64,000 bases of DNA from NCBI GenBank assembly GCA_964016885.1, contig OZ024746.1, positions 89,466,001-89,530,000 on the forward strand, written 5' to 3'. Of this stretch, positions 1,054 through 63,915 are shown one piece after another. Numbering within the stretch: position 1 is the stretch's first letter; each line of letters starts with the position of its first letter. Position numbers and translations under genes: made by a program. This DNA comes from Eledone cirrhosa. Taxonomy: Eukaryota. Under the pieces are notes generated by a model, which worked only from the letters and a program-made list of their open reading frames with translations, was not told where the DNA came from and did no database searches.

Positions 1054-3604
1054 GGCGACCTACGTATGAAATCGTATTATCGTGAGCACCACAAAGGTTT
1101 GTTGTTTTCAGTTGTTTCAAATTACCAGTTATGGAAGATCCTTCTTGCTAAGTGTCTATAAGTTCACATATATAGCTTTCTGAAAAGGATACTCAATAAT
1201 ATTGGGTCCTTGAGCCCAAAATTTAAACCTTTTATTTATCAAACAAAATATTTCTTTGAAAAGAAACATGGCCGAAAAATCTCCTGTTTCTAACAGACTA
1301 ACATACCCCGACCACCACCTCCATTGTAAACCTTGCCACGGTTGCCATCACTGAAAATATAATTAATAGCAGTCTCAATTATTCAGATTTGCCGCATACA
1401 GACATTAATTCCCCCCATTACCAATAACTACAGGTGTTAAAGCCGCCATTCCCACCTTCCCAATGTCAAAAAGAACAACCAACCCCACTGATACCATTAC
1501 CACAACCATCACCTCAGCGACAACAGTGGGAGAGGCACAGACATGCGCCATTTCAGACACATACACGACAACCTCCATCTTGCGATACATCGTAGAGAGG
1601 GTAGCTAGGGAACCTGGCACGGGTGGGTCCTTGATAAATTTAGATCAGTCGAAATCTTTCGATAGGCTCGACAATGTTATCTGGCGGCAGTCCTGAGGGG
1701 GGCTGTCTTTGGGCCCGTCTTCAGATCCAGCCATGCACAATGACATCTGCTCTGTGGTGAGAGTGAACGGTCACCTTTCGGAACCGTTCAATATCATGGG
1801 CTCGGTCCGCCAAGGATGTCCCCTCTCGTCCCTGTTGTACGTATTGACTCTCGAGCCATTACTGCACAAACTGGAGACGTTGAGGGGGGTCCCGCGCGAA
1901 CTAGGATGCGGAAGATCCGTGTCAGCATATGCGGACGATGTCACCGTAGTGGTGTCGAACGCCAAACACATCGAGGCGATCGGCACTACACTAAGAGAAT
2001 ACGAAGCGGTGACAGCAGCAATGATCAACCAGGAAAAGTCAGTGGGCCTGCAGCTCGGCACCTGAACAGGCAGGTACATCCCGTCCAACAGCGTCGTCGG
2101 GCGCTGGACGGACGGACCGGTTAAATTGCTCGGGGTCCGGTTCGATCCGGACTTCCAGACGGAGAAAAACTGGGACAAGGGGACGAGCAGGGTGGCTTCT
2201 CTCACCCAGAAATGGGTGGAGAGGAAGCTATCACTGAAATGTCGAGCGGAGGTGGTTAACGCGTATATCGCGTCCGTCATCTACTAGCGCCTGACCGTCA
2301 TACCTTGTCCTAAGTCCCGACTGACTGCGCTGGAGCATTTACTCTTTCGCTTTTTGTGAAAGGGACGCGCTCCGATGGTCAGACGGTCCCTCTTCTGTCA
2401 ATACCCGCTACGTGGAGGGATGTTTGCTGTCAACACCCTTACGTGGAGGGCTGGGCATGCCGTGGCTGATGATGCGCAGACACGCGCTCAGGCTACGACA
2501 TCTCCACCTCTTCCTCGACGGTGATCAGTTGTGGACGCTGTTTGCTAGACGCGTCTTTCCCCAGCTCGTTTCCTTGACGGAGCTGCAGTCCTGGGTCAAG
2601 CGAAGACCGAGAGGGAGCGCTTGGAGACTGGAATGTCTTCAGGCGCTCACAGAGAATACGAAGCGGTGACAGCAGCAATGATCAACCAGGAATCGGGCAA
2701 TGTGATCGGTGGAAACTCCACCTCAGCGTTCTATAGAGGATCAGTGGAGGGGAAGAGCGACGACATACTTGGGGAAACTCTAGGCCTCGACGAAAATATA
2801 TTGGCCAATCTCTTCGGAAGAACTTTCGGACCAGGGCCTATGGACAACTTCCAGAAATCCCTGGCCTGGCAGTGCTACCGAGGAGCCTTGCCAGTTCGGG
2901 ATAAACTCTACAGGCATGGAGGTGCCCTCAGCCGGGCATGTCCGAGATGCGTGCAGGGCGACGAAACCGTCCTGCACGCATTCGTCCAGTGTCCGAGAAT
3001 TGCTTACTTGTGGGTTTATGTCGAACACCTGCTGTCGCGTGTAAGACGAATCCGGCTATCAGCTGAGTCCATCGTGAGGATTGCCCCGCCCTCTTCCTTT
3101 AGCTGAGAAGGGCAGGCAGTTTTTATCTGTCTGGTGGCCATGGCGAAAGAGATAGTATGGTGGACACGTTTGAAAGGGCTGAAGACGAGCACTTACCTCT
3201 TCGGTGATGCCCTGATTGACTTTTTCCAATTTCATTTGAAAAGGAAAATTAGGGTAGAGAGGGAAGTGCTCTCTTCTTAGCATTTTGTTGAAAGATGGGT
3301 GGGAGAAGCTAGAATGGCCCGAATGAATGGGCCTACTCTGAGTATGTGTCTGTAAATTAAAGGTGGAAAACTGGGAGAGGGCACTTGCCCTGGTGGTCAG
3401 GGTCACTGTGGCCTTTTAATGGGGTTTCTCCACAAATGTCCCTCCGAAGTCTCCCCCCTATAGGGGAATTTTTCATTGTTATTTTTATTACATCCTCTGT
3501 TTTTGTTTTTTTACACGCAGAAATGCCCATTTGTACCGTCCTGTATTGTCCTGTACTCTCTTTAATGTCTACTTTATGTAAACCCTTGTGGTCAATAAAG
3601 AAAG

Positions 3605-17146: not shown

Positions 17147-17148
<2 letters not shown>

Positions 17149-17352
17149 AAAATAGTTAGGACCCCACCGGCTGGGATCCGGCCGTTTCAACAGCTAGATC
17201 TGAACTGTTCGGATCTAGCTGTCGAAACGGCCTGAGCTCAGCCGTCCGGATCCTGGATCCTGACTCTTTTCCTATTACCCACTCTACTACCATAAGTATC
17301 GAGTACTCTGGTGCGTTATAGTCCACCTGTATCTTACCACACCTTCTTTGTT
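17147..17352 (+). mobile_element. Fold-back PLE-derived element, family A
   Basis: Hairpin 17180-17232, then HHR 3' half GAAAC-GGC..GCC-GTC. Tail 17271-17352 is homologous to the PLE tail at 46101-46183. (TA)n on both sides. Confidence 0.85.
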
Positions 17353-28699: not shown

Positions 28700-31307
28700 T
28701 GTCAGCTATATATATATATATATATATATTTATTTTTTTTGTTTTAGCATATATTTATTTCAAAGATTTCACCGTAAAGATAACATATGTTTATACATAC
28801 ATGACATAATTCCAACCCATGGCAGCAGACGCGCAACGACAAAGAGAGATGAGGGCAAATCAATCAAAAACATTAGTTGCTCTACAACATCCCAACACAT
28901 TTCAACAAATGTAATTCAGTTAGCACACTAACAGCAACTTGCAACAAATACACCAAACGTTCAGAGAGGAAGGAACAGGCCAATTGAAGGTCTGGTAAAA
29001 AATCCTACAGATGAACCTTTCCAAGAGCAAACTGTTCTTTCACTATTGCCACAATATATTGCAGGGAGTCTCTTTGCCTCTGTTTGTCCGCACTGCAAAG
29101 CTTATCGCTGGCCACATGAATCCAAATATCTGTGCTGCTTCCAGGGAATAGTGAAACTCCCTCAACTCCCTCCTCCTCCACCAAATATACTGAAATATTT
29201 CGATATCACTCAAGCAGCAAATTCTTTTCTCCATAAGATACGTGAATATAACAATGCGCTTGCTTTAGCTTCAATTGGTTGCAAAGAAATTAAAGCACCA
29301 GGATTTAGTCCCATATTTAAGATCCAAGGTAAGATTTGTCATTTTATTGGATCACTACTTCGAAGTGATGCTTCACCCCATTTTGCGCAGCTTTACTTCT
29401 ATGATACAGATCATGGGCTTCTGAATCGCTTGCATCATGCTAATTTAGATGCTGCTGTCCACCTGCAAGAAGATTTGCACTACTGCAACACCTATATGAG
29501 AAGCTTCAAGGCAGTCATTGAAATGCCAGTCTCTGAAAATGTGAATATTTTCCTACATGCTGACAAAGTAAAACCCACTGATTTCCATTGTCGCACATAT
29601 AATCTTCCCAGGGAATCTGAGATTGCTGTTATTCAACCTGATACATTAGGTCTTTCGGATGTCATCATTCATAAAAGAGATGGTGGTCTTCAGAGGATTC
29701 ATCAGTTGCACCGTTCTTATGATCCACTGCATTATGTGCTACTGTTTCCTTGGGGGAATGATGGCTTTCAGGTTGGTTTGAAAAGGATTTACCACAACCA
29801 CACACTGACACCCACGGATTTCTACTGATATCGGTTTCAGATAAAGCAAGGTGACTGTAACATTATCATGAAGAGCAGGCAATATGCTGTAGATGCCCAG
29901 GCAAAAATAGAACATTGTTGCGTCAAATGGGCCCCACAACAATCAAACCCTGATACGAGCAGAAAAGTATGAGGGTTTGTATGAGGCTGTGGCTGAAGGA
30001 GATTCAGTAAATGCAGGCCGGAGAATTGTTCTTCCTCCTTCTATCTATGGTTCCTCTCGCTTCTACACTGAGTGCTTTCAGAATTCGATGACTGTGTTTC
30101 GACACATGGGAAAGACATCTTATTTCATTACGGTAACAACTAATCCTTACTGGGATAAAATAAAAAAAATAGTTTGCATCCTGGTGAAGAACCTTGAGAC
30201 CGTCCTGATATGTGTGCAAGAGTCTTCACGATCAAGTATGACAACCTCATGGATGACATACTGAAAACAAATGTCCTAGGAAAATGTGTGGCTCATTCTA
30301 CTACAATAGAGTGGCAGATATGAGGCCTCACCTATGCTCATATTCTGCTGATAATGGCTGAGGATAGCAAGCCCACAACTGCTGATGCCATTGATCAGGT
30401 AGTGAACTGTAAGATTCCTGATAAAGAGACCTATCCAATTCTGCATAAGATCATCACATCCTGCAACATTCATGGCCCATGTGGACAAGCTAATATGATG
30501 TGCTCATGTATGGAACGCCTAGGACAACAACGCCATTGCTCAAAATGTTATGCCTAGGCATTCAGATAAACCACATTTGTTGCTGAAAATTCCTTTCCTG
30601 AGTATAGAAGAAGGGATAGAGAGCATCGTGGTCACACCCATACAAACCAGCTTAAAGGTCAAGAATTTACTGTTGACAATCGTTGGATCGTTCCATACAA
30701 CCCTTTCCTTTCCAGACAAGATCACATTCACTATTAAGGATGATCAAGGAAATTGTGTCCATGCCTAAAATGAGATTGAGACTTATATCAATGCACGGTA
30801 CATCTCAGCCAGTGAAGCATTCTGGAGAATCTATATGGAAGAGGCTTCATCCATTACGTTTGGTCCTCAACTGCGAGAAATCTTCTGCACCATTATATTG
30901 TACTGCATGCCAAATGACACTCTGCAGTTCTGGGAGAAATGGAAGAATTGTCTTGTAGAGGATATCATGCATGAACGTCATGAGCAAGGCATGTCCATGC
31001 AAACCGTGCTGATTGTTCTAGAAAAGATCCAACAAAGACTTCAAGATTATGGCTTGGACATTCATGCCAACTATGGACTTCCTCAGCCAGACCCAACTAT
31101 TGTTGCCATACCAGAAATCAACAGAGTTCTTATGGCAGAAACTGATTTCAATACACATTAACTGCAGGCAAACATAAATAGACTGCCAACATTGAATCCT
31201 GAACAACTGGTTATTTTTCACAAAGTAATCACCTCTGTAAATATAACTGAAGGCAGAATTTTCTGCTTGAATGCAAGTGCATGTACAGAAATGACATATA
31301 TCATAAA
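28700..31307 (+). mobile_element. Helitron Rep/helicase pseudogene, internally deleted
   Basis: CPHC..CC, FAQLYFYD, SYDPLHYVLLFPWG, RIVLPPSIYGSSR, YFITVTTNP, IEWQ..GL.YAHILL, HGPCG, VDNRWIVPYNP, ARYISASEAFWRI, then LNPEQ and a decayed Walker A. Many stops and frameshifts; termini not identified. Confidence 0.92.
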
Positions 31308-32050
31308 CCCCTCGTCTGGAATGCCACTTGAACCTGGCGTAGAATGGACCGCACGTCCAAGACGGAGGCTGCAATGCTCGCAGCATCGAGGCTGACGTTC
31401 ACCACCTCCGACTTGGCCGAGTTGACCTGGAGGCCGATTCCCGCCAGGGCAGGAACCACCGATTGAAGGTCATGGCAGACCGTCCGTACGGGCCCGCCCA
31501 ACGTAGCATCATCCAGATACCAAACGTTAAAAGGGGCTGTGATATTCCGGGCGATGTGGTCAATACCAAGGGCGAACAGGAGGGGTCCTAAAGGGTCGCC
31601 CTGTTGGACTCCAGTAGCCGAGGATATGACCGTATCAACAGCAAGGAACATGCCCGGGGCTCCATATGACAGGTAGGCCAGCGAGTAGGCAGAGGGCGCT
31701 CGGCTGAGGCAGGCCACGAGCAGATGATCCCGGCGTAAAGAGTTGAAGGCATTCCTCATGTCAAGCTTGACAATGAGGTCTCTGGAGTCCCTGGATGCCG
31801 GTTCCGATGGGCAGCTGTTAAAGAACTGCCTGGTTGCATGAGAGGCCCCCTCACATCCAACGGATACGCCAACACTCAGTTGCTTCACCAGCCAGTTCGT
31901 GTGTTACGGACTTGCAGATCACCTTGGCAGCCAGCCTCCGGAAGACATTGCCCACAGCAATGGGGCGTATGCCACCCTCTTTCTTCCTGAGAGCGGTGAG
32001 GCTGGCCGAAAAAAAAGAGGCCTCGGGCGTAAGGGTTCAGGGCACCATGG
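31308..32050 (-). mobile_element. CRE-like non-LTR retrotransposon RT fragment
   Basis: GGIRPIAVGNVFRRLAAK, QLSVGVSVGCE, KLDMRNAFNSLRR, GVQQGDPLGPLLF, WYLDD. GC-rich and truncated at both ends. Confidence 0.88.
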
Positions 32051-33641: not shown

Positions 33642-33934
<293 letters not shown>

Positions 33935-40668: not shown

Positions 40669-40970
40669 TAGAATTGGTGCTCTAAAATAGCGATATATAT
40701 ATGAATGTATATATATAGTGCATTTTGCAATACACGGTATGCTTAATTAAAAACATTTCGAAGACCTTACGCTATTTTTTTAGAGTAGTAAAAGTCTCAC
40801 TTACTTTATATTTTCAGCAAACAGGGGAGATAAAGCTGAGAGAGCTCTGTCAGCTTTATCTCCCCTGTTTGCTGAAAATTTAAAACAATAGCGTAAGGTC
40901 TTCGAAATGCTTTTAATTAAGCATACAGTGTATTTCAAAATACACTGTATATACATTCATATATATATAT
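40669..40970. mobile_element. Fold-back element, family C (~275-bp spacerless palindrome with one indel)
   Basis: Centre at 40844/40845 (agag|ctct); inner arms 40810-40879. The outer arms carry an HHR-like 3' half GAAA-TGCTT..AAGCA-TA. Confidence 0.85.
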
Positions 40971-42092: not shown

Positions 42093-42095
<3 letters not shown>

Positions 42096-42311
42096 GTGGA
42101 ACACTGGAGGGTAATATCGTAGTGGTAGAGCACTCAGTCCATGGGACGAGTTAGGTAGAAGTGGTTACACAACAGTTAGTTCACCATACCGAGAACAATT
42201 GTTTCACCTTAGCTGATCCTCAGCTCGGAATCATGATTCCCAGCGGAGGATCCGCTAAGGTGAAACAATTGTTCTCGGTATGGTGTACTAACTGTTGTGT
42301 AACCACTTCTA
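42093..42311 (-). mobile_element. Fold-back element, family B, with hammerheads on both strands
   Basis: 63-bp tail plus 78-bp arms (42156-42233, 42234-42311) with no spacer; in (TA)n. Confidence 0.9.
42189..42228 (-). ncRNA. Minimal type I hammerhead ribozyme motif
   Basis: CCGAG-CUGAGGA-UCAGCUAAGGU-GAAAC-AAUU-GUU-CUCGG: 5-bp stem I, intact core, palindromic stem III, weak stem II. Confidence 0.7.
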
Positions 42312-43060
42312 TATATATAAATATTTGTGTTTGTGTGTGCATGAAGGTGTCATAAACATTGATGACAAACACAACAGTAGGGCGTCGGTGCATCTGGCGT
42401 GACTGTCATATGCAGTCCATTGCATTATCAACACAAATACTATTCGTAGACAGAACATAATAGTTAGGATTAAAAATATTGTACTTTTATTAACACAAAA
42501 CTTTCAAGCTAATGCTTATACTTATATCCATACATGGGATTACCCCACAGATGCAAATTTTCTGTAGTTTAAAACCACATTAGATGATCTTTTCAATTTT
42601 CATCCACTTAGGATAATTTACTTAATGAAATACCGCGTGTCAATCAAACATTAGATACCATTTAAAAGTACACCCTAGCACAGAAGGATAGAATCAATTC
42701 CGGCACGCTGTTACTAAAGAAGCTACAACTAGGAAATATCCTGGAAGTATAAATTTCGTATTGTAGAACAAAACAAATTCGTATACTACATCGAAGAACG
42801 TAACCTGGTTATAGAATATATGAACACGTGGTTACAAAAAAAAACAAAAAAAACAAAACAATCGAAACAAAACACACTATACATCGACTTAAGCACAAAT
42901 GATTAGTTAGAATATACTAGAAAAATAATATATTGTTAAACTTCCTCGTCAACAATTAACCAGATGCTGTTAAACCAAAGACTGATAATCAGAGAATACG
43001 CTGCACAATTGTTAACTTAATGACTCATTGTTTCATAGGCTACACATAGATGACACTTAC

Positions 43061-44678: not shown

Positions 44679-45282
44679 CTGTGTTTCAGGTTAAACAAAC
44701 GTGGTTTCTCTACCCTCGTAATTTTAGACACATAATTTACTGTGTTTATTTCTACATATATTATTATATAATGCTCAGTATTTATACTTTGAGCGTGTTA
44801 ATTGCAGGGTATCAATATGAGTTAGTAACTCTGTATTTTATTTGTATTTCGGCTCCCTAACCAGGTGGGCTTATAGGTTGAGTGTAGTAAGGCTGTTATT
44901 TCTAGTATATCCACTCATACCACATATAACGTCCAACACACGAGGTCTGATATTCATTCCTGTGGATTATAGTTACATGTGTTTTGTTTCATTTGATCTT
45001 ATCTCTCGCTGAGGAAAGCCTACGGATTATCTGTTACAAACACAATTTTCAGGGCGAAACAGATTAAATCTCTAATCTGTCTGAGAGATGAAATGGTTAT
45101 TGATGCGGTCTGTATATAAAATTATATATCTTACTGTATATTTCAGGTTAAATATATAAAACAAACGTGGTTTATCTACCCTCGTAATTTTAGACACAAC
45201 ATTTACTATGTTTATTTCTACATATATTATTATATAATGCTCAATATTTTTTACTTTGAGCTTATTAATTGCAGGGTATCAA
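44679..45282 (+). mobile_element. Non-coding HHR element with ~140-bp direct terminal repeats (retrozyme-like or PLE partial tandem)
   Basis: 44679-44815 is repeated at 45134-45282, with an HHR between. Confidence 0.75.
45001..45089 (+). ncRNA. Type I hammerhead ribozyme
   Basis: Stem I AUCUCUCG/UGAGAGAU; CUGAGGA; stem II GCC..GGC with a long loop; GAAAC-AGAUUA..UAAUCU-GUC. Confidence 0.8.
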
Positions 45283-45393
45283 AAAAAAAAATATATATAT
45301 ATATATATGTATATATATTGGTAAAAGGCAAAGAAAATGCTGACAAATTGTTCCCAGTGAAAAATAGTTTAATTAGGAATAAGCAAAATTTTG

Positions 45394-45457
45394 AGATAGA
45401 GCGCCCGTGATGTTTGCTCTAATCCGGATTAGAGCAAACATCACGGGCGCTCTATCT
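45394..45457. repeat. Perfect 64-bp spacerless palindrome
   Basis: agatagagcgcccgtgatgtttgctctaatcc|ggattagagcaaacatcacgggcgctctatct. Confidence 0.97.
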
Positions 45458-45522
45458 GAAAATTATTTTTGAAAAGCATTAGAAATGCGCAACCGGTAAA
45501 ACTTAAAACCAAAACTGAATAC

Positions 45523-46181
45523 GTCACCGTATCATTTACGTACTTATACCTCTTAAAAGGGTCCTTGCCTCTTCCGTCCCACCTAGTTCTTTTACTTATT
45601 TCGTTATTTCTTTATTTCTTTCTTTACTTCTTTCTTTCTTTATTTATTTATTTATTCTAGCCTAACAATAGCTAGAGACTTAGGTCGTAGAATTTAATTT
45701 ACTTTACTTTTTTCTTTACACTTATTTGCTTTTCTTCACTCTCAGTATTTTTTCTTTCCTATATATTTCTACCCCCCATTGTTCTACCTACCGTTCCGAC
45801 TTCCTCCCCCTCCCCCCCCTGTATCTTCTTTGACCTCATGCCCAGCTGTAGCTGGCACTACCAACGCTTGATTGGGTCTACTCCACCCCCTCCCCTCTTT
45901 CTCCTACTGGCAGGTTTAGCCACCATCTCCCCTACTAATTTGCAATCACAGAATTACTACTGACTTTTGACAATCACTTTGACCATATATGGAATTACCC
46001 CTTGAGAAGATCGGCTATATAAATACCAGGATAAATTTTCATTTAGTCCAGAATTAGCCGTCGAAACGGCTTGAGCTCAGCTGTCGGGGTCTTACTGGTT
46101 CCTATTACCCACTCTACTACCTCAAGTATTGAGTACTTTGGTGCGTTATGGTACACCTGGTTCCTTACCACATTTCCTCCG

Positions 46182-46183
<2 letters not shown>
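45523..46183 (+). mobile_element. 5'-truncated PLE 3' UTR/terminal repeat with tail
   Basis: 45523-46103 is nearly identical to 54845-55423, with an extra 80-bp tail, then (TA)n. Confidence 0.9.
45997..46090 (+). ncRNA. Type I hammerhead, U3-A8 core variant
   Basis: ACCCC-UUGAGAA-GAUCGGCUA...UAGCCGUC-GAAAC-GGCU..AGCU-GUC-GGGGU. Confidence 0.7.
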
Positions 46184-47367: not shown

Positions 47368-49400
47368 CAAAGGGATATTTAATTTGTTGTTAATTCAACA
47401 AATATATTTATAACAGATTCGAAGCCCTCAACATAATTTCTGAACTAAGAACATAGCACAAACTATAAATACAATTAATAATAGACACTTAAATTTAAAC
47501 CCTAACCAAACAAACAAAGATAACAATAATAATATTTCTAATTACAATATTCATATTAATAATACCATTTCTAATAACAACAACTCCCGAAAATGTAACT
47601 GTAGAATTGAATCAAACTGCCCTTTACGAAACAATTGCTTAGATAAAAAGTTAATATATAAATGCACAGTAAAAACTAGAGACAATATATATAACTATAT
47701 CGGTGCCACTTCTACAAAATTCAAATAACACTGGTATAATCACAAACATACATTTAACAGGTCCGATAAGAAATCTTCCACTTCACATTCACATCTAATT
47801 TGGTATTTAAAGGACAATAATATTGACTATTCAATATCTTGGGGAACGATTTCGAAAGCACCTCCATACCGAAATATGGATTTCTCAAGAATCTGTCACT
47901 TTTGTACCGAGGACATTTTTTATATACTTAACTGTCAACATTTTATTAATTTAAAAAACGAATTATTCAGTTCTTGCAAACGTCGCCAAAGAACCACTTT
48001 CCGAAGTATTTTTAATCTATAGTATTAATTACACTTGACTTCATCTTATATATCTTTAAAATGCTTCTGTTGTTTAATGAGGTTTTTTTTTAATGATTTT
48101 TTTAAAATAATTTTTATAAATGATCTATTTCTTCTTAAATTAATATTTTTACCAATGATATTCTTTTCCTAATGATACTCTTCTTAAAATATTATTTTTA
48201 GATTGATACTTTTTAATTGATATTTTGAATGATATCCTCTTTACGATACTTCTTCTAAATGCACTCTTGACTTATCTAATAATATATTTGTTTCTCTGTT
48301 TTAATCTTCAAATTGTTCACACATCTATAGACGTAGATATTATCTAAATACATATATAATTGAAATTCTCATCCTTGAAAACATGTAATATAAAATACCT
48401 TATAATCTCACACGAAATAATATATAATTTTCTCTACATACTTTCCGCATTTTCTAAGAAAATTATTCATCAAATCTAATATTAATAGTTTAACAAATAA
48501 TATTTGAGTCATCTTTTCCCTTACAATTGGGCAAACATGGACATAATAACTTGTATATTAAATTCTATGTAATTTCGCTAACTTAATAATTTTCTGTAAA
48601 TATTTTCAATTTTTGATGAAGCTATTTGAATGTACAAAATGTTGTTCTCTTAAAATTTGAACTACGTCTTTTTCTTAACTATATATTTAAAATGTAAAAT
48701 CAACATCATTCGTAACTTATATTAGAAATGTAAACAAATTATTACGTGTGTTATATATCTATAAAAAAATAACAGCATATAATCACCAATATTATTTATA
48801 TTTATGCATTTATTAATCTATATAGATATTTATATACTTACAACCTGTTGTAATATAATAAGATAAAATGTACTTACAACCATAAATCTTCATATAATCT
48901 AATTTTAATGATTATATATATAATATTATAACTCATGATTTAGCTAATTTTTTTTTAAATTCTGGATTGATATTCCACCACTTTTAATTTTTAACGTTTC
49001 AACTTTTTTTTAAATTCACGTACACTGTAATAATATAAATACAAGCTACTCTTTCTTCTTCTTATATATAAATATATATATATCCTAATAATTATTTAAA
49101 TCTACCTAGCGTCTAAAAATAACGATCTTTTCAGCTCTATGCTTCAAATTCATTTGCATATTCATAAAAATAATTGAAATATTTTTTTCCCTGTCTTCCC
49201 CTTTTCACCTTTTCCCTCTTTCCTTTCAGTATCCAGGCTGAACTTGAACCGTTAAGGTCTGATTCCTGGGTATGTCACTATTTATAAAACAAACTTTGTA
49301 TTTTATCTGATGAGGGCGTACTAAAGTTTTGGTACTCTTGAAATATATATAATAGAATAAATATAGTTTTATAAATATAGTTTCCATTTATCAATATCAT

Positions 49401-49402
<2 letters not shown>
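47368..49402 (+). mobile_element. 5'-truncated PLE: inverted tail, GIY-YIG pseudogene, long 3' UTR, HHR
   Basis: 47590-48022 reads KCNCRIESNCPLRNNCLDKKLIYKCTV..YNYIGATSTKFK*HWYNHKHTF..IWYLKDNN..CHFCTE, homologous to 53750-54170. Confidence 0.9.
49299..49359 (+). ncRNA. Minimal hammerhead motif
   Basis: UAUUUUAU-CUGAUGA-GGGCGUAC..GUACUCUU-GAAA-UAUAUA-UA-AUAGAAUA. Confidence 0.7.
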
Positions 49403-53042: not shown

Positions 53043-53045
<3 letters not shown>

Positions 53046-53315
53046 GAGGTTATATTTAATTTGTTGGGATACAACAAGCTAAAATATTTTTATAGCTTAT
53101 ATAAAGCACTCAACAAATTATTGGAGTAAATATACAATATATTAGCAAATGGAAACTATATTTATAAAACCATATTTATTTTATTATACATATTTCAAGG
53201 TCCACCAAGTCAGATTATGGTGCGCTTTCATCAGATAAAATATAATACAGATTAGTTTTATAAATAAATATTGACATACCCTGAAAAAATGCAACCTTGA
53301 CGGTTGGAGCTTCCT

Positions 53316-53318
<3 letters not shown>
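53043..53318 (-). mobile_element. Solo PLE terminal repeat with minimal HHR and tail (family of 47368-49402)
   Basis: Minus strand UAUUUUAU-CUGAUGA..GAAA-UAUGUA-UA-AUAAAAUA (53177-53242), colinear with 49250-49400; (TA)n on both sides. Confidence 0.8.
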
Positions 53319-53377
<59 letters not shown>

Positions 53378-53379
<2 letters not shown>

Positions 53380-55418
53380 GAGCGGATATTCGATGAACAT
53401 GCGCCTTATTACAACCAGGCCCTCAAGCGGAGTGGTTTCCGGGAAGAAATATCCTACTGTCCAGCTCCCATTAGCGGAACCAGCAGGAGACACCGCCGCT
53501 CACGCAATGTAACATGGTTCAATCCTCCGCACAACGCAGAGGTGACAACTCCCATCGGGAAACTATTCTTTAGGCTCATTGAAAAAAAATTTCCCACTAC
53601 AACACAGCTACCACAACATAATTAACAAAAATACCATCAAACTCTCTTACAGCACTACACCAAACTTCGCACAAAACATCGTCTCCTCTAACAACAAAAA
53701 ACTCAACCCCGATGGCAGAAATAACCTAAATAGCAGTGGAGAACCGACCAGGAGGTGTAACTGTCCGGATAGATCCATTTGCCCACTCGACAATAGATGC
53801 AGAGACCGTAATGTGATCTACCAGTGCAAGGTGAGGACGGATACCTCCAACAAAGCCTATATAGGACTTACCGCATGTGACTTCAAGACCCGGCTATACC
53901 AACATAGACATACCTTCCGAAACCCGGCCCGGCATCACGCCACTACACTTTCGGGCCACATATGGGACCTCAAGGACAACAACATCACCTATGATCTCAC
54001 TTGGAGATTACTGTCCAGAGCCAATTCTTACACGGGAGGACGCCGTCCGTGCAATTTATGCTCGGAGGAAACTTTACAAATGCTGTTTTCGATGGACCAA
54101 CTCCTAAACAAGAAAGATGAACTGGTTACTGCATGTAAACATAGATTGCGTAGGACTTACCTCGCCTTCAAACCCCATAATGACCCGGGGGGGGGGGGGG
54201 GGGGGGTAGACTAGGGCTATAACCCCCCACTTGCCGATTTTGCAATGGGTAACCCCTGCTTGCCAAGGGAGACGTAAGATCTTCTTTTTATTCTTTTATC
54301 GCTTCCTTTATTTCCTTCCCCACATCCCTCATTAGTCCTTCTACCCCAGCTCTTCTTCTTTGTCGGCGTCTTTTCTCACCCACCCGAGGCTGCCCTTTGG
54401 CCCCTTGTAGCCTTAGTACCCCCACCCCTCCCCTAGTCTATGATAGATTTGGCGGACTCCGCTTTTAATAGCAGTTGGTTTAGACCCCGGATACTTGCCC
54501 CCTTTTTTCGACCACTCCCACTATTTTCTGTGCCTTCTATATTTCTTAGTGGCACTATGCCTTATTTTCTCGTTTCAGTATTTCTTTCTTCGCTTTTCTT
54601 TTGGGCGGGGTGGATTCTGAATTTATTTTTCCGTATTCTACCTTTACTTCGTACGAACTTTCATGTAGCTTGTTTAAGGTCTTTTAGAGTTAGCATTAGT
54701 ATATATTTTTTTCGGGACTCAGAATTATTATCTCGTACTAGTTTACTTTGCACTGGGTGGTTGCTGGCATTGTGCCCGGGATAGAAACCTTTATTATTTA
54801 TTTCGTGGTAGTCTCTTTAGTATTTTGGCCCCATTTGTTGACCTGTCACCGTATGATTTACGTACTTATACCTCTTAAAAGGGTCCTTGCCTATTCCGTC
54901 CCACCTAGTTCATTTACTTATTTCGTTATTCCTTTATTTCTTTCTTTACTTCTTTCTTTCTTTATTTATTTATTTATCTAGCCTAACAATAGCTAGAGAC
55001 TTAGGTCGTAGAACTTGCTTTACTTTTTTCTTTACACTTATTCGCTTTTCTTCACTCTCAGTATTTTTTCTTTCATATATATTTTTACCCCTCATTGTTC
55101 TACCTACCGTTCCGACTTCCTCCCCCTCCCCCTCCCCAGTATCTTCTTTGACCTCATGCCCAGCTGTAGCTGGCACTACCAACGCTTGATTGGGTCTACT
55201 CCACCCCCTCCCCTCTTTCTCCTACTGGCAGGTTTAGCCACCATCTCCCCTACTAATTTGCAATCACAGAATTACTACTGACTTTTGACAATCACTCTGA
55301 CCATATATGGAATTACCCCTTGAGAAGATCGGCTATATAAATACCAGGATAAAATTTCATTTAGTCCAGAATTAGCCGTCGAAACGGCTTGAGCTCAGCC
55401 GTCGGGGTCTTACTGGTT

Positions 55419-55420
<2 letters not shown>
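53378..55420 (+). mobile_element. 5'-truncated, relatively young PLE (RT thumb end, GIY-YIG, 3' UTR, HHR)
   Basis: NERIFDEHAPYYNQALKRSGF...WFNPP / IKLSYSTTPN...CNC..CPLDNRC..VIYQC..AYIGLT..FKTRLYQH..CNLCSEE. One frameshift near 53585. (TA)n on both sides. Confidence 0.93.
55315..55408 (+). ncRNA. Type I hammerhead, U3-A8 core variant
   Basis: ACCCC-UUGAGAA-GAUCGGCUA...UAGCCGUC-GAAAC-GGCU..AGCC-GUC-GGGGU. Confidence 0.72.
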
Positions 55421-55494
<74 letters not shown>

Positions 55495-60785: not shown

Positions 60786-60831
<46 letters not shown>

Positions 60832-60832
<1 letters not shown>

Positions 60833-61047
60833 GTAGAATACTGGAAGGTAATATCCGTAGTGAAAGAGCACGCAGTCCATGGGACGAGTTTGTTAGAAGT
60901 AGTAACACAACAGTTAGTTCACCATACCGAGAACAATTGTTTCACCTTATGCGGATCTTCAGCTCGCAGTCCAGCTAGAGCTGAACATCCGCATTAGGTG
61001 AAACAAATGTTCTCGATATGGTGAACTAACTGGTGTATTACTACTTC

Positions 61048-61050
<3 letters not shown>
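60832..61050 (-). mobile_element. Fold-back element, family B, copy 2
   Basis: Same tail and arms as 42093-42311; arms 60894-60965 and 60978-61049 with a 12-nt loop; in (TA)n. Confidence 0.9.
60928..60966 (-). ncRNA. Minimal type I hammerhead ribozyme motif
   Basis: CGAG-CUGAAGA-UCCGCAUAAGGU-GAAAC-AAUU-GUU-CUCG. Confidence 0.72.
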
Positions 61051-61112
<62 letters not shown>

Positions 61113-63079: not shown

Positions 63080-63915
63080 TGATTTCTACTCTAGGCACAA
63101 AGCCAGCAATTTGAAAGGGAGAGGAAAGTCTATTAAATCGACTCCAGTACATTACTGGCGCTTTAATTCATCGAGTCCGTAAGGATAAAATGCAAAGCTT
63201 AGCTAGGCGGAATAATTAGAAGTGTGATGGATACCATCTAGAAGAGCAATAAGCAAATCTTATCATCTTAAACTCCGAGATAAAGCCTGATGGTCAGAAG
63301 AAAAAAAACCGGCCATTGATGTCAACACAGAGCAATGATTAAGATAACATTTAACAATACTAATAAATACTAAAAAATAATTGTTTCTACGTTTGGCACA
63401 AGGCCAGCAATTACGCAGTGCATTACTGGTACTTTATTTTATCGACCCCGTAAGGATGAAAGGCAAAGTTAACCTCGGCGGGATTTGAACTCAGAATGGT
63501 AAGGGCCGTAACTCTATACGTCAAAGCATAGCGTCCGACTCTCTACCGATACTACCAGTCCACCACCCTACAATACTAATAAATAATTGTTTCTACATTT
63601 GGCACAAGGCCAGCAATTACCCAGTGCATTACTGGTACTTTATTTTATCGACCCCGTAAGGATGAAAGGCGAAGTTAACCTCGGCGGGATTTGAACTCAG
63701 AATGGCAAGGGCCGTAACTGTAATAATAATAATAATAATGGTTTCTAATTTAGGCACAAGGGCCACAATTTTTGGGGAGGGGAAAGTCCATTAAATCGAC
63801 CAGAGTAGATCACTGGTACTTTATTTTATCGACCCTGTAATGATGAATAACAAAGCTAACCGCGACGAGATTTGAACGCAGAATGTAAAGGGTCGTGGCA
63901 CTATGTCGCAAAGCA
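63080..63915 (-). mobile_element. Cluster of four SINE family 1 copies (63080-63212 long, 63378-63568 short, 63585-63720 short, 63739-63915 long)
   Basis: Each begins tttcta..ggcacaa(a/g)g..ca and contains actgg..cttta.tt.atcga. Confidence 0.92.

Follow-up and report, generated by a model that had tools for sequence, protein, structure and literature searches.

At positions 60832-61050 of a 64,000-nucleotide stretch of the Eledone cirrhosa genome (contig OZ024746.1; hereafter the window), a hairpin of about 220 bases lies inside a (TA)n tract. It is built from the end of a common repeat, present in two head-to-head copies, and is most likely a short, dead insertion product of a Penelope-like element (PLE). 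This pattern is a published one, and implies nothing about function. Membership of the PLE class is very probable. Taken as a whole, the hairpin is best explained as a minimal PLE insertion, in which both nicked strands of the (TA)n target would each have primed a short cDNA and the two cDNA ends would have been joined near a hammerhead ribozyme motif (HHR). We give this reading a probability of roughly 0.6. There is also a hint that the hammerhead marks the point at which the copies were joined.

As an object, 60832-61050 is an ordinary dead PLE stub, and its value is as a record of mechanism. The origin of the head-to-head inverted ends of PLEs and the role of their hammerhead are both open questions in the available text of PMC8557442 and PMC11167929.

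Anatomy of the hairpin and its hammerhead motif

The hairpin (60832-61049) comprises a 62-nt tail and two inverted 72-nt arms around 12 nt, and its minus strand carries the tail at the 3' end. The tail (60832-60893, minus strand) is one-sided and lies between two 3' ends of the family that are seen in reads, as loose ends running into (TA)n before 60833 and before 60894/60897. The tail-bearing arm (60894-60966, minus strand) is a sense copy of the element's 3' end, with no private substitutions among the 40 variant positions listed (of 145). The tailless inverted arm (60978-61049, plus strand) holds a decayed HHR and all of the differences between the arms, which amount to 6 mismatches over 72 nt when 60894-60965 is aligned with 60978-61049. 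Both arms terminate in CTTCTA. The minus strand is predicted to fold at -124.0 kcal/mol, compared with -47.2 ± 4.6 kcal/mol for 200 mononucleotide shuffles (z = -16.5).

A repeat scan places the (TA)n target tract at 60788-60830 on the left and at 61051-61110 on the right. No target-site duplication is discernible, both flanks being themselves (TA)n, and the locus is without a tandem array of direct repeats. The window overall is AT-rich, animal-type DNA, dense in (TA)n tracts and repeats.

A second copy of the same family, also on the minus strand, occupies 42093-42311. It has a tail (42093-42155), two arms (42156-42233 and 42234-42311) and a spacerless palindromic apex, and its right flank has only about five TA units. 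The initial annotation had pointed to this likeness, and its account of the coordinates, tail, arm ends and (TA)n context of the hairpin holds, with 84% identity over 220 columns between 60833-61050 and 42096-42312. Four subfamily differences (60901, 60904, 60958 and one indel), at sites that vary among family reads, are common to both arms of each copy. Since the arms of each copy share the alleles that distinguish the copies, the two hairpins formed separately, from different subfamilies. Profiles of this family and of the second family described below, run over the window with nhmmer, recovered only the 4 and 6 arms from which they had been built.

The tail strand carries a minimal type I hammerhead motif at 60927-60966 (minus strand), with a predicted cut at 60932/60931. 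It is made up of a 4-bp stem I (60963-60966 paired with 60928-60931), the core CUGAAGA (60956-60962) followed by an extra U and a 2-bp stem II, GAAA (60940-60943), a 2-bp stem III with the palindromic loop III AAUU, and the triplet GUU (60932-60934). CUGANGA, GAAA, an NUH triplet and stems I and III are all present on this strand. The motif in the tailless arm fails the core test, as its G8 is changed to C (CUGAACA, 60981-60987), and its loop III and stem I are altered too. In 42093-42311, the cores read CUGAGGA on the tail strand and CGGAGGA on the other arm. The observation that the tail strand keeps the intact core is thus borne out for the core boxes of both copies; the tail-strand HHR of 42093-42311 is not intact throughout, however, as a private change at 42214 breaks one of its only two stem II pairs.

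The tail-strand HHR of 60832-61050 lacks both a G10.1-C11.1 pair and a stable stem II (a U.U plus 2 bp), and a forced monomer fold is predicted at only -1.3 kcal/mol. The Rfam model Hammerhead_1 (RF00163) matches 60926-60968 on the tail strand, with 16.7 bits and E = 0.19, below its gathering score of 34, and gives no match on the other arm. When the four HHR regions were isolated and folded freely, either singly or as dimers, the full hammerhead fold was not obtained. Over the whole window, no hammerhead occurs among the best 150 of 293 Rfam matches. All 150 fall below gathering, and they comprise miRNA-type hairpin or repeat models and one viral UTR model; the miRNA matches were rejected as generic hairpin matches. 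Self-cleavage is a prediction from the motif, and read-through RNA is predicted to bury the HHR in a 72-bp duplex. What had been described as a dual hammerhead is a by-product of the inversion, each strand carrying one sense HHR.

Likeness to Penelope-like elements

PLE insertions, as described in the available text of PMC8557442, have an adjacent inverted copy truncated at its 5' end, a tail of 30-40 bp that is often confined to one end, a pLTR containing an HHR, and a preference for (TA)n. Head-to-head pLTRs with junction palindromes are described in the corresponding text of PMC3846280. The hairpins at 60832-61050 and 42093-42311 resemble these insertion units of C-terminal EN+ PLEs in their head-to-head inverted copy of the end, their one-sided tail, their HHR near the 3' end, their (TA)n target and, at one junction, a palindrome. 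The (TA)n preference is that of the Neptune, Nematis, Hydra and Naiad types. Unlike such units, 60832-61050 and 42093-42311 have no ORF and arms of only 73-83 nt, while the tails are 62 nt (about 78 nt in the second family) rather than 30-40 bp.

The minimal type I HHRs of metazoan PLEs, in the available text of PMC4209133, include dual motifs on opposite strands 100-700 bp apart, with an extra base after A9, a palindromic loop III and a U3-A8 core variant. The same short stem I, unpaired base after A9 and small palindromic loop III are found at 60832-61050. Opposite-strand pairs recur here as well, and the U3-A8 core variant recurs in the second family. In contrast to the published motifs, stem II at 60832-61050 has only 2 bp and no G10.1-C11.1 pair, and the opposite-strand motifs lie about 12 nt apart.

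According to the available text of PMC11167929, a PLE protein (Anolis PAc, Poseidon) cuts both strands of the target and extends them, with two start sites on the RNA, one at each boundary of the tail; HHR cleavage was not needed, and HHR mutants had no effect on insertion in vitro. That system shares with the present family two 3' ends bounding the tail, AT-rich targets, and cDNA that reads through an uncut HHR. The same text contains no description of inverted products, cDNA stop points or the joining of two cDNAs. Two-strand priming and two start sites are taken from that source, while the early stop and the joining are what we infer here. We found no statement on HHR-positioned junctions or twin priming for PLEs in the open-access papers searched.

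The same anatomy as that of 60832-61050 occurs in a second family in the same window (family B), together with a parent bearing a GIY-YIG-type ORF. The parent fragment (53378-55421, plus strand) comprises the end of this ORF (53546-54214), a long 3' UTR of 1.2 kb and a tailless end that runs into (TA)n, and contains an HHR-like motif with a U3-A8 core and a long loop II at about 55316-55408 (plus strand). The ORF end encodes a Cys-rich linker and a VIY...YIG motif, and scores 0.96-0.97 to protein clusters, including one with GIY-YIG on 23% of its members; Pfam returned no families for it. A 3' fragment of family B at 45523-46182 (plus strand) has a 78-nt tail (46105-46182). For the family of 60832-61050, no RT/EN parent ORF was found, and two short family motifs gave no matches each in two metagenome scans.

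Two family B hairpins, with tails of about 77 nt, lie at 17147-17351 (plus strand; tail 17275-17351, apex at about 17207) and at 33748-33933 (minus strand; apex at about 33878, with an 11-nt deletion in the tail-bearing arm). The tail arms of the family carry this 11-nt deletion and a 7-nt duplication, and one arm in each hairpin ends at nearly the same upstream base. Both hairpins turn 15-17 nt upstream of GAAA, and the core of the parent lies 61 nt before GAAA; the parent in this comparison represents another subfamily, that of the hairpins themselves having its parent outside the window. The turn falls inside the stem II loop, and neither arm therefore has a whole HHR.

Apex junctions and the origin of the inverted arms

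Reads of the family were surveyed by aligning 4 of 23 listed runs to 60832-60977 (tail, one arm and loop) at a likeness of 80. X1 and X2 come from one sample, and runs with a share below 0.2 were left out except X4. The aligned family records are contigs in X1 (3369), X2 (3212) and X4 (117), and reads in X21 (9538). The family is a high-copy repeat with tailed and tailless ends, which mostly continues upstream past the HHR. Loose ends into (TA)n occur at the tail end in 1735 reads of X21 and in 34 and 37 contigs of X1 and X2, and at the tail boundary (60894/60897) in 1234 + 848 = 2082 reads of X21, 59 + 27 = 86 contigs of X1 and 58 contigs of X2. Among the rows listed, most HHR-reaching records extend into upstream family sequence, with read-through in at least 184 contigs (X1), at least 155 contigs (X2) and at least 3281 reads (X21). 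Depth at 60972-60977 is 0 in all four runs, from which the locus is absent; thus, the apex of 60832-61050 is not a multi-copy form in these runs.

The initial annotation had contrasted a loop at the apex of 60832-61050 with the spacerless palindrome of 42093-42311. The two apexes do differ, but the 12-nt loop is probably not a spacer. Positions 60967-60972 are the exact reverse complement of the 6 nt after stem I in the read consensus of X2 and X21, and the X1 consensus differs from this complement at one base. The match is based on the three runs that list a loose end at 60966, with a consensus agreement of 0.57-0.70, in runs without this locus. These 6 nt would then belong to the tailless arm as upstream family sequence, and in the apex loop (60967-60977, plus strand) they would be followed by a 5-nt insertion that repeats AGCT. 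Because the 6 nt match upstream family sequence, the junction is likely to lie at 60966/60967, at the edge of the 4-bp stem I.

The arm that owns the apex bases is not the same in all four hairpins of the window. In 60832-61050, the tail arm stops at 60966 and the tailless arm has 6 upstream nt that are absent from the tail arm. Similarly, the tailless arm of 17147-17351 extends 2 nt further into upstream family sequence. The tail arm is the longer one in 33748-33933, and the apex of 42093-42311 (42233/42234) is symmetric. Since the tailless arm is longer in the first two, one fold-back of a tail-primed cDNA cannot give them, and apex bases owned by the tailless arm make two cDNAs, each with its own priming, a better fit than one fold-back. 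An unstable palindrome can, however, also acquire an asymmetric apex when it suffers a deletion later on.

The apex lies close upstream of stem I in both copies, as first noted, with its centre about 6 nt (60832-61050) and about 7 nt (42093-42311) from the 3-bp GAG of stem I. The proposal built on this, that the ribozyme structure positions the fold-back, receives mixed support from the reads. Three of the four types of opposite-strand joint end at 60964-60966, and the tail arm of 60832-61050 also ends at 60966. These are 60927/60966, the commonest type, from one sample (2 contigs in X1 and 3 in X2), 60928/60964 (1 contig in X2) and 60965/60966 (1 contig each in X1 and X2, 3 reads in X21); the fourth is 60896/60933 (1 contig in X2). 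X4 has no joints, and the remaining ones are 60930/60916 (2 reads, kind unstated) and one skip. With the unclear joint counted as a miss, three of five would be expected by chance with a probability of 0.003-0.02, assuming 7-14% per joint. The joint 60927/60966 is in the register of stem I, and one of its arms could end at the predicted cleavage site 60931/32.

However, joints are rare, at 0.1-4% of the listed records, and family B turns in the stem II loop. Among the rows listed, opposite-strand joints number 3 contigs against 184 with read-through in X1, 6 against 155 in X2, and 3 reads against 3281 in X21. The read reference ended at the HHR, and the survey covers apexes up to that point. 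Long hairpins are probably under-counted in short-read libraries. The rare joints could be library chimeras, and the available text of PMC10908179 describes chimera formation at inverted repeats in short-read libraries. A general early stop would fit as well, given that the arms measure about 55-83 nt in both families.

In the preferred reading, both nicked strands of the (TA)n target would prime cDNA. One cDNA would start at the outer RT start site and include the tail, and the other would start at the inner site without it, so that the inverted arm would begin exactly at the tail boundary. Each cDNA would stop after 73-83 nt, either at stem I or just beyond it, and the joining of the two ends would involve little or no microhomology, so that apexes would differ between copies. 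The inserted hairpin copy would then decay. We regard this combination of outer and inner starts, early stop and joining as moderately likely. It accounts for the exact tail boundary seen in all four hairpins of the window and for apex bases owned by either arm, and leaves a 9:1 excess of changes on the tailless arm unexplained.

A more speculative extension, which we consider rather doubtful, is that twin-primed cDNAs stop and join at the hammerhead (at stem I, at the cut site, or at a dimer that the palindromic loop III holds together), and that the tailless arm derives from another RNA or from a step of lower fidelity. If true, the PLE hammerhead would have a structural role in integration, and the mechanism could be read in genomes from the ends of the arms and their asymmetry. 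The informative counts, in a family with thousands of matching records, would be the arm to which the apex bases belong, the stop points of the arms relative to stem I, and the arm with more changes.

The same PLE stub could also come from one cDNA (or an antisense template) that folds onto itself, at stem I or at a short palindrome, and serves as its own template, with the endonuclease trimming the second arm at the tail boundary. This is possible, if on the unlikely side. The apex of 42093-42311 is a perfect palindrome, the joint 60927/60966 overlaps by the four complementary letters of stem I, and the available text of PMC3846280 proposes that PLEs self-prime at inverted junction palindromes. 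However, a snap-back would require a later apex deletion wherever upstream bases are present in the tailless arm and missing from the tail arm, as in two of the four window hairpins, and an extra rule for stopping at the tail boundary. Snap-back at stem I is not favoured by DNA folding of the cDNA strand either.

The differences between the arms bear on a further alternative, a non-autonomous element in which the hairpin itself is recopied and selection preserves the tail-strand hammerhead or a protein-binding arm. The tailless arm is derived in 6 of 6 differences in 60832-61050 and in 3 of 4 in 42093-42311 (p = 0.021, post hoc). Private changes in 60832-61050 fall on 0 of 72 nt of the tail arm, compared with 5 of 62 in the tail and 6 of 72 in the tailless arm (Fisher p = 0.009, post hoc, for the 40 of 145 variant rows listed), and the four window hairpins together give 18 against 6 (p = 0.023). 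Yet the skew is arm-wide, and not specific to the core. The core share of tailless-arm changes is 1/6 and 1/3 in the two copies, as chance gives (P = 0.64 and 0.40), and lends no support to the earlier suggestion that only one polarity may be under constraint. Family B alone has substitution counts on the tailless and tail arms of 7:3 and 2:2, a total of 9 against 5 (p = 0.42; two unclear sites dropped and columns under the 11-nt deletion not counted), and large indels in its tail arms. The change-free tail arm of 60832-61050, between a changed tail and a changed tailless arm, may reflect gene conversion, a template difference or chance, and gene conversion, a different template RNA or an assembly error could give an equal skew. 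Recopying is also at odds with the absence of the 60832-61050 apex from all four runs aligned, the separate origins of the two copies, a -124 kcal/mol duplex that should block HHR folding, and the lack of effect of HHR mutants on insertion in vitro in the available text of PMC11167929. We consider it improbable.

A MITE or fold-back DNA transposon, or an assembly artefact, would fit the inverted arms in a TA context and the absence of the locus from the aligned reads. Both are very improbable, given the 62-nt tail outside the inverted arms on one side, the HHR motif, the tailed and tailless family ends, the 6 of 72 bases that differ between arms, and the presence of four such hairpins of two families in the window. 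The HHR motif on each strand and the rod-like fold would suit an integrated viroid-like RNA or retrozyme that replicates by rolling circle with ribozymes of both polarities, but this too is very improbable: the two motifs are one sequence inverted rather than two distinct ribozymes, the ends match PLE tail boundaries, and family reads extend upstream. Non-LTR retrozymes, in the available text of bioRxiv 10.64898/2026.07.22.740005, are non-coding and likely PLE-derived, with a type I HHR, as is the case for 60832-61050, but they form direct tandem arrays instead of an inverted pair with a tail.

Other repeats in the window

A CUGAUGA hammerhead motif and an 8-bp stem I characterise a third family. 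Its copy at 53043-53318 (minus strand) carries a tail of roughly 90 nt between two (TA)n tracts, and the one at 49240-49402 (plus strand) is tailless. Neither copy has a fold-back. A larger hairpin at 40690-40970, possibly of another fold-back family, lies between TA-rich flanks; its arms measure about 130-155 nt, one of them with a 26-nt gap, and it shows no clear HHR. A near-perfect 78-nt palindrome at 45387-45464, in which no HHR was seen, has ends like those of the inner part of the hairpin at 40805-40884. The direct repeat formed by 44693-44815 and 45159-45282 (93%) carries a loose hammerhead-like motif on the minus strand, and could represent direct pLTRs of a further family.

The window also contains ORF fragments at 28932-31161, 1697-3106 and 31301-31903, which we take to resemble a Helitron-type replication protein and two non-LTR reverse transcriptases. 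Lastly, a repeat of about 190 nt is abundant, at 63377-63568 and about ten other sites, and resembles SINEs in its size and spread.
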